Source of the DNA: Escherichia coli
Lineage (GTDB): Bacteria > Pseudomonadota > Gammaproteobacteria > Enterobacterales > Enterobacteriaceae
Strand: one strand, 5' to 3'
NCBI RefSeq assembly: GCF_003334335.1
Contig: NZ_QOWQ01000049.1
DNA: 30,887 bases
How positions within the stretch are numbered: the first letter of the stretch is position 1; every line of letters begins with the position of its first letter. The notes below the pieces were generated by a model. It did not search any database. It saw only the letters and a program-made list of their open reading frames with translations, and was not told where the DNA came from. Both the position numbers and the translations under genes were made by a program. Positions 1,989-26,994 of this stretch are shown here, piece after piece.

Positions 1989-3278
1989 ATGAAAGTATTA
2001 GTGATTGGTAACGGCGGGCGCGAGCACGCGCTGGCCTGGAAAGCGGCCCAGTCGCCGCTGGTTGAGACTGTTTTTGTTGCTCCGGGTAATGCAGGCACTG
2101 CACTGGAACCCGCGCTGCAAAACGTTGCTATTGGCGTGACCGATATCCCGGCGCTGTTGGATTTCGCACAAAACGAAAAGATTGATCTGACCATCGTCGG
2201 CCCGGAAGCGCCGCTGGTGAAAGGCGTGGTCGATACCTTCCGCGCCGCCGGGCTGAAAATCTTCGGCCCAACCGCAGGTGCGGCCCAACTGGAAGGCTCA
2301 AAAGCGTTTACCAAAGATTTCCTGGCCCGCCATAAGATCCCTACGGCGGAATACCAGAACTTCACCGAGGTAGAACCTGCGCTGGCGTATCTGCGTGAGA
2401 AAGGCGCGCCAATCGTCATTAAAGCGGACGGTCTGGCTGCCGGGAAAGGCGTTATCGTGGCGATGACGCTGGAAGAAGCGGAAGCGGCTGTTCACGATAT
2501 GCTGGCGGGCAACGCTTTTGGCGACGCGGGTCATCGCATCGTTATCGAAGAGTTCCTCGATGGCGAAGAAGCGAGCTTTATCGTGATGGTGGACGGCGAG
2601 CATGTGCTGCCGATGGCTACCAGCCAGGATCACAAACGCGTAGGCGATAAAGATACCGGACCAAACACCGGCGGGATGGGCGCTTACTCCCCCGCGCCGG
2701 TAGTAACCGATGACGTTCATCAGCGCACCATGGAACGTATTATCTGGCCAACCGTGAAAGGCATGGCGGCGGAAGGCAACACCTACACCGGTTTTCTCTA
2801 CGCGGGCCTGATGATCGACAAACAGGGCAATCCGAAGGTTATTGAATTTAACTGCCGCTTTGGCGATCCGGAAACCCAGCCGATTATGCTGCGCATGAAG
2901 TCCGATCTGGTTGAGCTCTGCCTGGCGGCCTGTGAAAGCAAACTGGACGAGAAAACGTCCGAGTGGGATGAACGCGCTTCTCTCGGCGTGGTGATGGCTG
3001 CGGGTGGATATCCGGGTGATTACCGCACCGGTGACGTGATCCACGGCCTGCCGCTGGAAGAAGTGGCAGGCGGCAAAGTGTTCCACGCGGGCACAAAACT
3101 GGCGGATGACGAGCAGGTAGTGACCAACGGCGGGCGCGTACTGTGCGTCACCGCGCTGGGTCATACCGTGGCAGAAGCGCAGAAACGCGCCTATGCCTTA
3201 ATGACCGATATCCACTGGGACGACTGCTTCTGCCGGAAAGATATCGGCTGGCGCGCTATCGAACGCGAGCAGAACTAA
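1989..3278 (+). CDS. purD: Phosphoribosylamine-glycine ligase (GAR synthetase)
   Basis: 429-codon ORF starting 11 nt after the purH stop; ATP-grasp family translation typical of PurD. Confidence 0.97.
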   Translation: MKVLVIGNGGREHALAWKAAQSPLVETVFVAPGNAGTALEPALQNVAIGVTDIPALLDFAQNEKIDLTIVGPEAPLVKGVVDTFRAAGLKIFGPTAGAAQLEGSKAFTKDFLARHKIPTAEYQNFTEVEPALAYLREKGAPIVIKADGLAAGKGVIVAMTLEEAEAAVHDMLAGNAFGDAGHRIVIEEFLDGEEASFIVMVDGEHVLPMATSQDHKRVGDKDTGPNTGGMGAYSPAPVVTDDVHQRTMERIIWPTVKGMAAEGNTYTGFLYAGLMIDKQGNPKVIEFNCRFGDPETQPIMLRMKSDLVELCLAACESKLDEKTSEWDERASLGVVMAAGGYPGDYRTGDVIHGLPLEEVAGGKVFHAGTKLADDEQVVTNGGRVLCVTALGHTVAEAQKRAYALMTDIHWDDCFCRKDIGWRAIEREQN

Positions 3279-4600
3279 CGCGACAGTTTTGCCAATAGCG
3301 TTTTGCGCGTGATCCCTAACTGACGGGCGGCTTCGGTTTTGTTGCCGCCCGTTTTCTCCAGCGCCGCCAGAATCACCTCTTTTTCCACTTCCACCAACGG
3401 CTGAATATCCTGACTTTGTCCCAGCGGGATCGGCGTACTGGCAATCGCCAGCGGCAGCTCGCGTTCGGAAATATATTCCCCGGTCAGCAGCACCACTGCC
3501 CGTTCCACCGCGTTTTCCAGCTCACGAATATTTCCCGGCCAGTCGTAATGAATCAACAGATCCATCGCCTGGGGCGTAAAACCTTTTACCGCCTTGCGAT
3601 TACGCTCGGCAAAGCGCTGCAGAAAATGGCCAGCCAGCAGAGGGATATCTTCCCGCCGTTGCCGCAGCGATGGTACTTCAATCGCCACCACATTCAGGCG
3701 ATAGTAGAGATCCTGGCGAAAACGCCCGGCATTCACCTCTGCGGCAAGATCGCGATGGGTCGCCGCAATCAGCCGGACATCAACCGAGATAATCTGGTTG
3801 CTACCGACACGCTGAACTTCGCGCTCCTGAATCGCACGCAGCAGACGCACCTGCATCATCGGCGAGATATCGCCAATTTCATCGAGAAACAGCGTGCCGC
3901 CGTCCGCCTCAACAAAGCGCCCTTCCCGGCGTTTATCGGCTCCAGTAAACGCCCCTTTTTCGTGACCGAACAATTCAGATTCCAGCAAGGATTCGTTGAG
4001 TGCCGCACAGTTGAGCGTTACCAGCGGTTTTTCGCTACGTGCGCTACTGGCGTGAATCGCCCTGGCGACCAGCTCTTTACCGGTGCCGGAATCGCCGTGG
4101 ATCAGTACCGTGGCTTCCGATGGCGCGACGAGGGCGATTTCACTGAGCAGGTGTTGCATCGCCGGGCTTTTACCGACCATACCGAACTGGCTGGCAGTCA
4201 CCGCAGGTGTTTCAGCATCAATACTGTGCGTATGCGCGAGCGCTTTTTCCAGCGTCGCCTGTAGGTTATCGAAATCCAGCGGCTTGATGAGATAATCCAG
4301 CGCCCCAGTTTTCAGTGCCTCTACCGCCGTCTCGACGCTGGAGTACGCAGTCATAATCAGCACCGGAATTGCCGGGTTTAACGCTTTGATCTCTTTCAGC
4401 GTGGCGATGCCGTCCATCTCCGCCATTCGCACATCGCAAAGCACAAGATCAAAAACCTGTTCCCGCACCTGCTCCAACGCCTGTCGCCCGCTGTTCGCCA
4501 GCGCGACGTTATAGCCCCAGCCGCGCAGTAAAGCCTGCAAAATAGTGCAGTGGCTAATGTCATCATCCACCACCAGAATATCGATATTATCGTGCGTCAT
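3275..4600 (-). CDS. zraR: Sigma54-dependent response regulator (receiver domain, AAA+ sigma54-activator domain with GAFTGA motif, C-terminal HTH)
   Basis: 441-codon ORF; NtrC-family architecture with GDSGTGKE Walker A, GAFTGA and Fis-type HTH. ATGA start/stop overlap with the upstream kinase gene. Confidence 0.95.
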
Positions 4601-5994
4601 CCTTGTGGGTCCTTACGCGTAATATTGACCGGAAGCCAGAGGGTGAACGTTGAGCCTTTTCCCTCCTGGCTTGCGACCTGAATTGTACCACCGTGTTGTT
4701 CAACAATATTATGCACGACCGCCAGCCCCAATCCGGTGCCTTCGGCTTTAGTGGTGAAGTACGGAGTGAAGATGGCATCAAGCTGATCTGCCGCAATTCC
4801 CTTACCGCTGTCGGTAACGCTGATTTTCACGCCCGCGCCGCTTTCGCTGGCCGTCACGCTAATCACGCCATGCTGACCAATCGCCTGAATAGCATTGAGA
4901 TAGAGATTCAACAGGACCTGAGTCAGCCTGTCCGGGTCGGCCTGAATTTCCGGTAATGTGTCGTTGGCGGTAAAGCGTAACTGGATCTCCCGGCTGTTTG
5001 CATCCTGACTTACCAGCTGTAATGAGTGGTTAATCAGCGTGTTGAGATCCACCGCCTGCAAAGCCAGATGCGTTGGCTTAACCAGTTCCAGCAACTCGCT
5101 TACCACGCGGTTTAAACGGTCGGCCTCTTTCGCCATCACCTGCGCCAGTTGATGCGCTTCTCCCCCTGCAGGCGCGCGCTCGGCAAAGTATTTCGCCAGT
5201 CCTTTAATCGAGGAAAGTGGGTTACGGATTTCGTGGGCAACGCCTGCCGCAAGATGCCCCAGCGCCACCAGCTTCTCTTTGCGCTTCATTTCATCTTGTA
5301 GAAGCTGGCGCGAGCGCAGATAGCGGCGATACCAGAAGAATGACAATACGCTTGCCAGCAAGACCGTCGCCAGGGCGAAGAGGATAATCAGGGTATTGCG
5401 CTTTTCCCCACTCTGGGTTGCAACCAGATCACTGGCATCAACGGCGATAAAAATAGCCTGTTGTGCATCTACTTGTGGCACAGCTTTGCCGTTACAGCGC
5501 GGCATATTGTGCATTCCATGCCGCCAGGGCGCTGACATTGGCTGGAACAAACGATAGACCTCAAGTGCAGGCGTAGTTTCCGTTTTCCCAAGCAGCCGCC
5601 AGCGGGAGTTTTCCTCTGGCTTTAATTTCTGCATTTCATCCGGCGAATAGAGCGCACGCCCGACCTTATCGGGGTCGCTATGAAGAATAATGATGCCCTG
5701 CGCATCGGTGACTGCGAACCACAACACTCCCGGCTGTCCCGCCATCTCTTCCAGAAGCGCCTGTTGCTGTACATGGTGCATTCGCATCCCCATCCCTACG
5801 CGGCTTCCCGACTCCAGAGCGCGGATAAGCACATTACCTTTTTCCAGTAATGCCTGGCGGTCTGCCTCGCTTGCCCGCCCATAATCACGAATCACAGTTA
5901 CCGCAAACAATCCCACCAGCCCAACAATGACCACGGGGAGGATCGCGCTTAACCATTTAGCTAAGGAGTCTTTAGAACGTTGCATAAAACGCAT
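4597..5994 (-). CDS. zraS: Sensor histidine kinase of the ZraSR two-component system
   Basis: 465-codon ORF with N-terminal transmembrane segment, periplasmic domain, second TM, H-box (GVAHEIRNPL) and HATPase motifs; translationally coupled to zraR. Confidence 0.95.
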   Translation of the reverse strand: MRFMQRSKDSLAKWLSAILPVVIVGLVGLFAVTVIRDYGRASEADRQALLEKGNVLIRALESGSRVGMGMRMHHVQQQALLEEMAGQPGVLWFAVTDAQGIIILHSDPDKVGRALYSPDEMQKLKPEENSRWRLLGKTETTPALEVYRLFQPMSAPWRHGMHNMPRCNGKAVPQVDAQQAIFIAVDASDLVATQSGEKRNTLIILFALATVLLASVLSFFWYRRYLRSRQLLQDEMKRKEKLVALGHLAAGVAHEIRNPLSSIKGLAKYFAERAPAGGEAHQLAQVMAKEADRLNRVVSELLELVKPTHLALQAVDLNTLINHSLQLVSQDANSREIQLRFTANDTLPEIQADPDRLTQVLLNLYLNAIQAIGQHGVISVTASESGAGVKISVTDSGKGIAADQLDAIFTPYFTTKAEGTGLGLAVVHNIVEQHGGTIQVASQEGKGSTFTLWLPVNITRKDPQG

Positions 5995-6025
5995 CTTCTT
6001 CTTTGCCTGCTCATCCCTTTCTGAC

Positions 6026-6041
6026 AGCAGAAATCATGCCA
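6026..6041 (-). promoter_or_regulatory. Sigma54 -24/-12 promoter for zraSR
   Basis: Minus-strand sequence TGGCATGATTTCTGCT has GG and GC at the consensus spacing of TGGCAC-N5-TTGCW, about 30 nt upstream of the zraS ATG. Confidence 0.7.
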
Positions 6042-6092
6042 TCTTTTATCAGCGCTTACCCTGCGCTGTAACACAAAGGCTTAAGTTTCAAT

Positions 6093-6138
6093 GAGTAAAA
6101 ATGACTCGCTACCCGCAGCAGGCGAGTCATTTTTACTC
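6093..6138. promoter_or_regulatory. Enhancer for ZraR: two 17-bp sites GAGTAAAAATGACTCGC / GCGAGTCATTTTTACTC in inverted orientation, each containing a GAGT-N7-ACTC dyad
   Basis: Read directly. It sits between the two divergent sigma54 promoters, the expected position for a bacterial enhancer-binding-protein site. Confidence 0.7.
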
Positions 6139-6180
6139 GTTTATCATGCCAGATTACCCGTCATATCAGCGTTTCATCGT

Positions 6181-6196
6181 TGGCACGGAAGATGCA
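6181..6196 (+). promoter_or_regulatory. Sigma54 -24/-12 promoter for zraP
   Basis: TGGCACGGAAGATGCA matches TGGCAC-N5-TTGCA at the GG and GC positions, about 36 nt upstream of the zraP ATG; GGAGG Shine-Dalgarno at 6221..6225. Confidence 0.75.
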
Positions 6197-6231
6197 ATAC
6201 CCGAAGTAAGACAACCACTGGAGGATTAACC

Positions 6232-6657
6232 ATGAAACGGAACACGAAAATTGCCCTGGTAATGATGGCGCTTTCAGCAATGGCGATGGGATCGACATCT
6301 GCATTTGCTCACGGCGGACACGGTATGTGGCAGCAAAATGCCGCGCCTTTGACCAGCGAACAACAGACAGCGTGGCAGAAAATCCATAATGACTTTTACG
6401 CTCAAAGCAGCGCACTGCAACAGCAACTGGTGACGAAGCGTTATGAATACAATGCCCTGTTAGCCGCGAACCCACCGGATAGCAGCAAAATTAACGCGGT
6501 CGCCAAAGAGATGGAGAATTTGCGTCAGTCGTTAGATGAGTTACGGGTGAAACGAGATATCGCGATGGCTGAAGCGGGTATTCCGCGCGGAGCCGGAATG
6601 GGCATGGGCTACGGCGGCTGCGGTGGTGGCGGTCATATGGGTATGGGCCACTGGTAA
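6232..6657 (+). CDS. zraP: Periplasmic zinc-associated envelope-stress protein ZraP (signal peptide; Gly/Met/His-rich C-terminal tail)
   Basis: True start is the internal ATG at 6232 (MKRNTKIALVMMALSAMAMGSTSAFA signal peptide, GGAGG RBS). The 188-aa track ORF from 6091 runs through the promoter and enhancer and is an over-extension. Confidence 0.9.
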   Translation: MKRNTKIALVMMALSAMAMGSTSAFAHGGHGMWQQNAAPLTSEQQTAWQKIHNDFYAQSSALQQQLVTKRYEYNALLAANPPDSSKINAVAKEMENLRQSLDELRVKRDIAMAEAGIPRGAGMGMGYGGCGGGGHMGMGHW

Positions 6658-6658
6658 A

Positions 6659-7354
6659 TCAGAACGTTTTCTCGTTGGGTTGCCAGCGACAGAAATCAGA
6701 GTTTGCCACTAACAGTAATTGCGAACCTTCGGGCGCTTCCAGCCATGCCACGCTGACATCAACAGAAGAGCGGCTCTGGCGGCGCTCGATATGCGCTATC
6801 GCCTGCGAATCTAAATCAGGTTTAATGGTTTGCCCTTCGCAGGTGGTCACGGTCTGTTCCATCGCATGCCAGCGCCCCTGGCGCAGCACGACTCTCCCCT
6901 GACGTAAGGCATCGCTAATCTGGCGGATCTGATCAGCACGATAACGGTATAAATCGATTTGGTCGTTAGAAAGCTGCTGCTTTTCCCCATCGGATTCACG
7001 TTGCATAAAGCTCAGATCACCGCGATCGTCAAAACGCGCGCGAATATTCACCGGCGGTTTGCTGTAAACATTGATATTGATGAGCGTGAGGTTATCGCCC
7101 TGCCAGCGATACTCTCGCGTCGTGGTATCGCCACTGCGCCACGGGCTAAACACGGCAAGCAGATGCACATTATCGCCGCTGTCTTTTCGCCAGATGCGTA
7201 CCGCGCCCTGGTCTTCAGCAAATCCACTGGCGGTAAAGGGAGGAAGTGAAGAGTTATGACTACAGGCAGTGAGAAGCAGAGCGCCAGCCAGCATCAATGA
7301 TCGACGCCAGAAAGACAAAAGGGGTGAAACCACCCCTTCGTTAAAACTGTTCAC
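6659..7354 (-). CDS. yjaH: Putative lipoprotein YjaH (DUF1481 family)
   Basis: ORF with lipobox LLLTAC-S. The track ORF starts at a GTG at 7360; a second in-frame GTG at 7354 gives 231 aa and is the start I favour from recalled protein length. Start is uncertain by 2 codons. Confidence 0.75.
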   Translation of the reverse strand: MNSFNEGVVSPLLSFWRRSLMLAGALLLTACSHNSSLPPFTASGFAEDQGAVRIWRKDSGDNVHLLAVFSPWRSGDTTTREYRWQGDNLTLININVYSKPPVNIRARFDDRGDLSFMQRESDGEKQQLSNDQIDLYRYRADQIRQISDALRQGRVVLRQGRWHAMEQTVTTCEGQTIKPDLDSQAIAHIERRQSRSSVDVSVAWLEAPEGSQLLLVANSDFCRWQPNEKTF

Positions 7355-7366
7355 TGCCACGCAATC

Positions 7367-11622: not shown

Positions 11623-11650
11623 GCCCCATTTGCGGGGCTAATTTCTTGTC
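11623..11650 (+). terminator. Intrinsic terminator downstream of rsd
   Basis: 5-bp GC stem GCCCC/GGGGC with ATTTGC loop, followed by the T-rich tract TAATTTCTTGTC. Confidence 0.6.
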
Positions 11651-11735
11651 GGAGTGCCTTAACTGGCTGAGACCGTTTATTCGGGATCCGCGGAACCTGA
11701 TCAGGCTAATACCTGCGAAGGGAACAAGAGTTAAT
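11651..11735 (+). promoter_or_regulatory. TPP riboswitch (THI element) in the thiC leader
   Basis: Contains the conserved thi-box core CTGAGA (11667..11672) and the downstream AACCTGATCAGGCTAATACCTGCGAAGGGAAC segment, about 90 nt upstream of the thiC ATG. Confidence 0.85.
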
Positions 11736-11817
11736 CTGCTATCGCATCGCCCCTGCGGCGATCGTCTCTTGCTTCATCCGTCGTCTGACAAGCCACGTCC
11801 TTAACTTTTTGGAATGA

Positions 11818-17185: not shown

Positions 17186-17439
17186 GACGGAATGTAAGAA
17201 CGTAAATTTATTCCGAGCCGCTACGGAAGATGAAAAACGCAAGGTTGTTGAAAGCGTTGTGTTTTTTTATGGTAGTGCCGTCAGCAGGAATGTTGTCCAG
17301 GGCGAAAAGCTTCTTCCTCGTTTCGCCCTGCCTTTCTTAAAAATTCCGTAATGCAAAGTCTGAAGCCATCGCCTGTTGAGCAATGAAAGAGATCTGATTG
17401 TAAGAGAGTAAATACTCAACTATGATAGAGACGAAAATA

Positions 17440-17601
17440 AGAACACATGTTCTCATCTTCCAGGATGCAGCAGACTGAAGAAATTCAGACATCCCGCAAC
17501 CTGCGATTATCGCAAGGTCAAGGCAAAGTCCGGTAATGGCGTTCTGAATACCAGAGATAATTCTCTGGCGAAACCCACCTTAAGGTGGGTTTTGTTATTT
17601 T
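17440..17601 (+). ncRNA. sroH: Candidate small RNA at the 3' end of the thi transcript region (position matches the sRNA sroH reported between thiH and htrC in E. coli K-12); 5' end not determinable from sequence
   Basis: Two consecutive hairpins (CCAGAGA-TAAT-TCTCTGG at 17551..17568, then AAACCCACC-TTAA-GGTGGGTTT at 17571..17592) followed by TTTTGTTATTTT; the 3' end is well defined. The 5' boundary and the identity are from memory of the K-12 locus. Confidence 0.4.
17571..17601 (+). terminator. Strong intrinsic terminator (9-bp perfect stem, TTAA loop, T-rich tail)
   Basis: AAACCCACC TTAA GGTGGGTTT followed by TGTTATTTT, read directly. It is a good terminator only on the plus strand; on the minus strand the hairpin is followed by CGCC. 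Confidence 0.8.
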
Positions 17602-26920: not shown

Positions 26921-26954
26921 GCGCAAAAAGGCTGGTGACTAAAAAGTCACCAGC
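26921..26954 (-). terminator. rplL-rpoB intergenic attenuator (partial terminator)
   Basis: Perfect 9-bp inverted repeat GCTGGTGAC-TAAAAA-GTCACCAGC (26931..26954) which on the minus strand is followed by CUUUUUGCGCU; lies 41 to 64 nt downstream of the rplL stop. Confidence 0.75.
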
Positions 26955-26994
26955 CATCAGCCTGATTTCTCAGGCTGCAACCGGAAGGGTTGGC

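Follow-up and report, generated by a model that had tools for sequence, protein, structure and literature searches.

The convergent genes zraP and yjaH end one base apart in the window, a 30,887-nucleotide stretch of Escherichia coli DNA (contig NZ_QOWQ01000049.1), and the arrangement is probably an ordinary spacer-less convergent junction at which each transcript runs on into the opposite gene and is terminated there by Rho. The zraP stop codon (TAA, 6655-6657) is followed by a lone A and by the TCA at 6659-6661, which is the yjaH TGA on the minus strand, so that direct reading across the junction gives ...CAC TGG TAA A TCA GAA.... The open reading frame list (frames 6091..6657 on the plus strand and 6659..7360 on the minus strand) and the RefSeq annotation (zraP 6232-6657, yjaH 6659-7354, with a gap of 1 nt) agree with this reading, and the coordinates and gene names under which an earlier note on this DNA had reported the one-base gap between the two stops are correct. 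Around the junction the sequence matches E. coli K-12 MG1655 at 100% identity, in an orientation reversed relative to the standard map. The same note had taken zraP to be driven by sigma54, which is borne out by a promoter element, TTGGCACGGAAGATGCA at 6180-6196, identical to the sigma54 ChIP-seq motif that Bonocora et al. (2015) attribute to zraP and that lies 25 nt ahead of the gene. The features on which the analysis relies are collected in the table.

Table. Features at and around the zraP/yjaH junction, in window coordinates.
Feature	Position	Strand	Basis or remarks
purD (+)/zraR (-) stop overlap, CTAA, 4 nt	3275..3278	both	sequence
zraP sigma54 promoter TTGGCACGGAAGATGCA, -24 GG / -12 GC	6180..6196	+	read in sequence; ChIP-seq motif match
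zraP CDS	6232..6657	+	141 aa; RefSeq WP_000828222.1; PF13801 on homologues
C-rich, G-poor tract past the yjaH stop; candidate rut site	6480..6658	-	composition
Published Rho termination region, "antisense zraP"	6518 (K-12 4201402, "+")	-	Adams et al. 2021
ZraP Gly/Met/His-rich C-terminal tail codons	about 6580-6654	+	
Single intergenic base A	6658	none	kept across Escherichia
yjaH CDS as annotated	6659..7354	-	DUF1481 lipoprotein, 231 aa; PF07356 on homologues
First modest C>G tract past the zraP stop; possible Rho loading zone	6828..6945	+	suggested by composition
hupA intrinsic terminator, hairpin GAAGGGGTGGTTTCACCCCTTT then U tract	7318..7339	-	strict scan; Term-seq

The 1-nt spacer leaves no space for a terminator, as had been stated earlier, and neither a strict consensus scan nor a relaxed scan for a hairpin plus U tract found an intrinsic terminator at the junction on either strand. 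The strict scan picked up solely the hupA terminator (7339-7318, minus strand), and the relaxed scan added no more than the same hairpin on its reverse face and a pair of weak candidates; a weak, imperfect candidate lies near 6491 (-9.5 kcal/mol) on the yjaH-strand side. An inverted-repeat search at the junction returned no significant structure, RNA folds of about 200 nt per strand were no stabler than shuffled sequences (z = -0.24 and -1.27), and an Rfam search of the whole window gave no match in the zraP/yjaH locus. A GC stem-loop between the two stops, with or without a U tract, is thus lacking in E. coli; such an element is present in Salmonella and in genera devoid of the zra genes. In the absence of a terminator between the genes, transcripts from either side necessarily extend into the opposite gene, where they would continue as untranslated antisense RNA until ended by Rho.

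Both overlapping transcription at the zraP/yjaH pair and Rho termination on the yjaH strand are already contained in published datasets, and for that strand bicyclomycin data show that yjaH transcription enters zraP and is ended there in a Rho-dependent manner. Adams et al. (2021; eLife, PMC7815308, supplementary file 2) report at K-12 position 4201402 (+) a strong termination region with a Rho score of 17.2 (p = 9e-85), at which the upstream/downstream reads are 444/40 in the untreated sample and 294/456 upon bicyclomycin addition. Coordinates were converted as window = 6659 + (4201261 - K12), where the yjaH end at 4201261 was derived from the "internal 39" label of the 3' end at 4200605 in the same study (PMC7815308), and the conversion was checked against the hupA 3' end. 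This places the Rho region some 141 nt beyond the yjaH stop, on the downstream edge of a C-rich tract, as an approximate coordinate only, being the best position within +/-800-nt windows of which the downstream one reaches into zraS. On the minus strand, all 78-nt windows with a start between 6658 and 6558 (down to about 6480) have a C/G ratio of 1.9-2.5, the 95th and 99th percentiles over the whole window being 1.67 and 2.09. The tract starts directly after the yjaH stop, hence in untranslated RNA, and its roughly 170 nt lie antisense to the GGN-rich codons that encode the ZraP tail. Such a composition is characteristic of Rho loading sites, and we infer the tract to be a putative rut site, its connection to Rho loading being correlative. 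Read-through raised by bicyclomycin, a C-rich untranslated tract and the lack of a hairpin with U tract are therefore found together on the yjaH strand. In mechanistic terms, the ribosome would leave at the yjaH stop, the RNA would enter the C-rich, G-poor stretch, and Rho would end the transcript inside zraP. The region shares with the other Rho regions of Adams et al. (2021) the bicyclomycin-sensitive drop in coverage past a stop codon on C-rich, hairpin-less RNA, and it is unlike the usual case in that the rut-like tract is antisense to the coding sequence of another gene and that one strand is documented. The earlier note had stressed the opposite direction, from zraP into yjaH; the only direction-resolved read-through that we found is that from yjaH into antisense zraP (Adams et al. 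2021).

As yjaH, zraS and zraR are co-directional, a Rho site near 6518 would keep read-through from hupA and yjaH off the zraP promoter region and out of zraSR. On the minus strand, positions 4597-6658 comprise zraP antisense lying between yjaH and the co-directional zraS/zraR, and the site would block hupA/yjaH read-through from driving sigma54-independent transcription of zraSR. Weak support for such insulation comes from the reads upstream of K-12 position 4204911, which rise from 74 to 172 with bicyclomycin (Adams et al. 2021, PMC7815308).

On the zraP strand, a literature search on zraP termination, antisense transcription and strand-specific RNA-seq with zinc turned up nothing on where zraP transcripts end under inducing conditions, and the LB and M63 datasets of Adams et al. 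(2021) hold neither a Term-seq 3' end nor a Rho region for this strand at the locus, as one would expect of a gene that stays uninduced in both media. Antisense transcription over yjaH from induced zraP is nevertheless plausible, and for some distance it is almost unavoidable. Once the sigma54 promoter is switched on by ZraR, transcription would proceed beyond the zraP TAA and cover the 3' part of yjaH in antisense. The plus-strand C/G ratio reaches 1.36-1.53 at 6828-6945 (about the 90th percentile) and 1.56 at 6978-7055, and because this enrichment is only modest, Rho would probably act a few hundred nucleotides into the yjaH antisense, as judged from base composition. For any zraP transcript that escaped, the first hairpin-like element ahead would be the hupA terminator read in reverse, some 680 nt further on.

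Conservation of the junction was followed within Escherichia and in related genera. Of 5426 complete E. coli genomes, 5421 gave an ungapped match to a 65-nt junction probe, at an identity of at least 99% in 5260, and in divergent E. coli where zraP is 6 nt shorter the gap is still 1 nt. In E. albertii, E. whittamii and other Escherichia clades the junction is TGGTAAATCA throughout. The C-termini are constant across genera, ZraP ending in ...GHMGMGHW* and YjaH in ...WQPxxKTF*, with the C-terminal length of YjaH kept as well; on the strength of this conservation both stop codons are genuine and ancestral, and an annotation artefact or a recent extension is ruled out for either of them. The zra genes occupy the same locus in other genera, and there the zraP/yjaH spacer ranges from 1 to 85 nt: 1 nt with no content in Escherichia, 12 nt lacking a strong hairpin in Kosakonia and Pluralibacter, 41 nt with a 12-bp GC hairpin (-21.5 kcal/mol, no U tract) in Salmonella, and 84-85 nt of REP-like palindromes in two Citrobacter loci. 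The Citrobacter spacers (L014, 2939-3023, 85 nt; L015, 2939-3022, 84 nt) contain palindromes such as GCCGGATGACGGCTTTGCCTTATCCGGCCTAC, which shows that spacer length at this junction varies as mobile palindromes are acquired and lost. With the stops ancestral and only the spacer differing between genera, the 1-nt tightness looks like neutral spacer loss.

The zraP-zraSR block is flush with its neighbors on both sides. The earlier note had likened the junction to that of purD and zraR, and the parallel holds, as the purD and zraR stop codons share 4 nt (CTAA, 3275-3278), leaving a 3.4-kb block (window 3275-6657) bounded by this overlap and by the 1-nt zraP/yjaH gap. At the sister junction, a Rho region antisense to purD at K-12 4204911 (+), with a Rho score of 4.3 (Adams et al. 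2021, PMC7815308), is the zraR counterpart of the site in antisense zraP. In Leclercia, Siccibacter, Cedecea and a Sodalis, which have no zra genes, yjaH converges directly on purD; the first three have a yjaH/purD spacer of 32-50 nt that holds a strong shared hairpin, against 218 nt in the Sodalis. In the zra-less Leclercia, Siccibacter and Cedecea a shared GC hairpin thus separates yjaH from purD, and in Salmonella one separates zraP from yjaH, whereas the E. coli junction has no hairpin. From this distribution, the zra block looks like an insertion at a former bidirectional-terminator site, or else it was lost in the zra-less genera.

To place the junction among others of K-12, we took four arbitrary 50-kb stretches of the annotation (200 kb), which hold 29 convergent CDS pairs. 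Six of the 29 have a gap of at most 1 nt, and nine a gap of at most 12 nt. The six are sxy/yccS (gap -38), lysR/ygeA (-14), iraD/hypT (-8), zapC/ycbX (-4), yccX/tusE (-4) and yebB/ruvC (+1; NZ_CP174267.1 2510760-2511885, or 10760-11885 in our locus L020). At this base rate (6/29 in the sampled annotation) the 1-nt gap was rejected as a statistically remarkable feature. The zraP/yjaH junction is real and fixed, yet it is a common layout, with about one in five convergent pairs equally tight. Compared with these six other spacer-less pairs, the layout is the same, stops abutting or overlapping, with no structural difference; the zra case stands out only in that a 3.4-kb block is flush with its neighbors at both of its ends.

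Both junctions of the block have been catalogued, yjaH-zraP and zraR-purD being among the 165 convergent excludons in Table 1 of ExcludonFinder (Sanmartin et al., NAR 2025, PMC12288877), for which a pair had to occur in no fewer than half of the 58 MG1655 RNA-seq samples. The two genes lie tail to tail on opposite strands, and their transcripts overlap according to this listing, with which the bicyclomycin-sensitive yjaH-strand coverage into zraP agrees independently. The expectation that transcription reads through the junction accordingly stands as regards transcript overlap at the pair, but transcription does end inside the neighbor, on the yjaH strand through Rho. At a gap of 1 nt any 3' UTR scores as overlap, and the listing thus says nothing on function. 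Seven of the nine short-gap (at most 12 nt) pairs of the K-12 sample are on the ExcludonFinder list as well. The yebB/ruvC (+1) and iraD/hypT (-8) pairs are missing from it, unlike most of the short-gap pairs sampled. What zraP/yjaH shares with the convergent excludons is therefore overlapping transcription units, catalogued as such; the hallmarks of a regulatory excludon are mutual exclusion and RNase III processing, and the membership of zraP/yjaH rests on layout and overlap.

Other outcomes for the zraP transcript can be weighed against Rho-terminated run-on. The minimum free energy fold places a stem-loop over 6652-6708, with an inner hairpin CGUUGG-GUUG-CCAGCG, which could be taken for a cryptic intrinsic zraP terminator within the first 60 nt or so of the yjaH antisense that would keep read-through minimal. 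This is highly improbable, as the stem is not followed by a U tract, its fold is no better than shuffled (z = -0.24, with 82 of 200 shuffles at least as stable), and it was missed by the strict and the relaxed terminator scans alike. Alternatively, zraP read-through might escape Rho, cross the whole of yjaH and stop at the reversed hupA hairpin or by head-on collision with polymerases arriving from hupA, a highly expressed gene. The weak plus-strand C>G bias over yjaH speaks for this, as does the fact that the only appreciable plus-strand hairpin is the hupA terminator reversed (7317-7336, -10.3 kcal/mol, tail TTCGTTAA), a hairpin in the overlap region being required by the collision model (bioRxiv 10.1101/2022.10.23.513370). 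The U tract on that face is poor, however, and on the yjaH strand of this junction termination clearly depends on Rho. Some 680 nt of untranslated RNA, normally ample for Rho, precede the hairpin. Antisense transcription is moreover generally suppressed by Rho (Adams et al. 2021, introduction, PMC7815308), and we regard escape from Rho over this distance as unlikely. The bidirectional, collision-type terminators of Ju et al. 2019 are Rho-independent in the account given in bioRxiv 10.1101/2022.10.23.513370. On that account, the theme shared with the present case is how convergent pairs end their transcripts; the E. coli junction has neither spacer nor hairpin, and its documented strand is Rho-dependent where those elements are Rho-independent. 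At the zraP/yjaH junction there is no hairpin, the yjaH strand depends on Rho, and no discrete Term-seq ends are listed, which sets it apart from a terminator of the collision type.

A further reading takes the junction for a regulatory excludon, in which the zero spacer was selected and zinc-induced zraP silences yjaH through collision or RNase III, and vice versa. The pair does belong to the published E. coli excludome, its 1-nt junction is fixed across Escherichia, and zraP, under the control of ZraR and sigma54 from a confirmed promoter, can be very strongly induced. Against this, excludome listing is near-automatic at a 1-nt gap, and tightness is not conserved with the pair, since in Salmonella and Citrobacter both genes are retained around spacers of 41-85 nt with hairpins or REP-like elements. 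The only co-expression datum found also goes the wrong way for mutual exclusion, yjaH and zraP changing in the same direction (-2.3 and -3.8) in a 2007 macroarray paper that used double-stranded PCR-product arrays, which do not resolve strands. Taken together, a regulatory excludon is quite unlikely here. We had also considered the macroarray co-variation as evidence of read-through and set it aside as ambiguous, double-stranded probes being unable to separate the strands. Decidedly long odds attach to a more elaborate scenario, in which loss of the hairpin spacer in Escherichia would have created a zinc-responsive switch lowering YjaH via zraP antisense (possibly up to the hupA terminator), and the Gly-rich tail codons of ZraP would be kept partly because their antisense, as a rut site, protects zraP and zraSR against read-through from the very highly expressed hupA.

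The hupA terminator bears on the other end of yjaH. It is situated 39 nt into the yjaH CDS as annotated (start 7354), and the corresponding Term-seq 3' end, at K-12 4200605 and window position about 7315, has an intrinsic score of 5.76, a Rho score of 0.74 and, in one growth condition, a Term-seq score of 102752 (Adams et al. 2021, PMC7815308). Across genera the stem carries compensatory changes (GGGGTG/CACCCC, GGGGCG/CGCCCC and GGGGCT/AGCCCC) and the encoded residues change. Because the stem compensates while the residues do not hold, the comparison argues that an RNA hairpin, and not an N-terminal YjaH peptide, is conserved there. Given a terminator inside the CDS whose stem changes in this compensatory manner, the annotated yjaH start is probably too far upstream, and a TTG at 7318-7316 (MSFWRRSLMLAGALLLTAC, with the lipobox LTAC) or an ATG at 7294-7292 are likelier starts. 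One gene caller starts a Citrobacter yjaH orthologue downstream (213 aa).

The significance of these observations is small and mainly one of bookkeeping: a lack of room between convergent bacterial genes usually means Rho termination inside the neighbor, and not unbounded transcription. For work on the ZraPSR envelope-stress system, it implies that yjaH expression data that are not strand-specific would be contaminated by zraP read-through whenever zraP is induced, and that the Rho site in antisense zraP probably insulates zraSR from hupA/yjaH read-through. Elsewhere in the window, the Rfam search detected a TPP riboswitch (11640-11740, plus strand, 74.8 bits), the sroH sRNA (17433-17593, plus strand, 201 bits) and a member of the "P26" family (26929-26990, minus strand, 74.5 bits).
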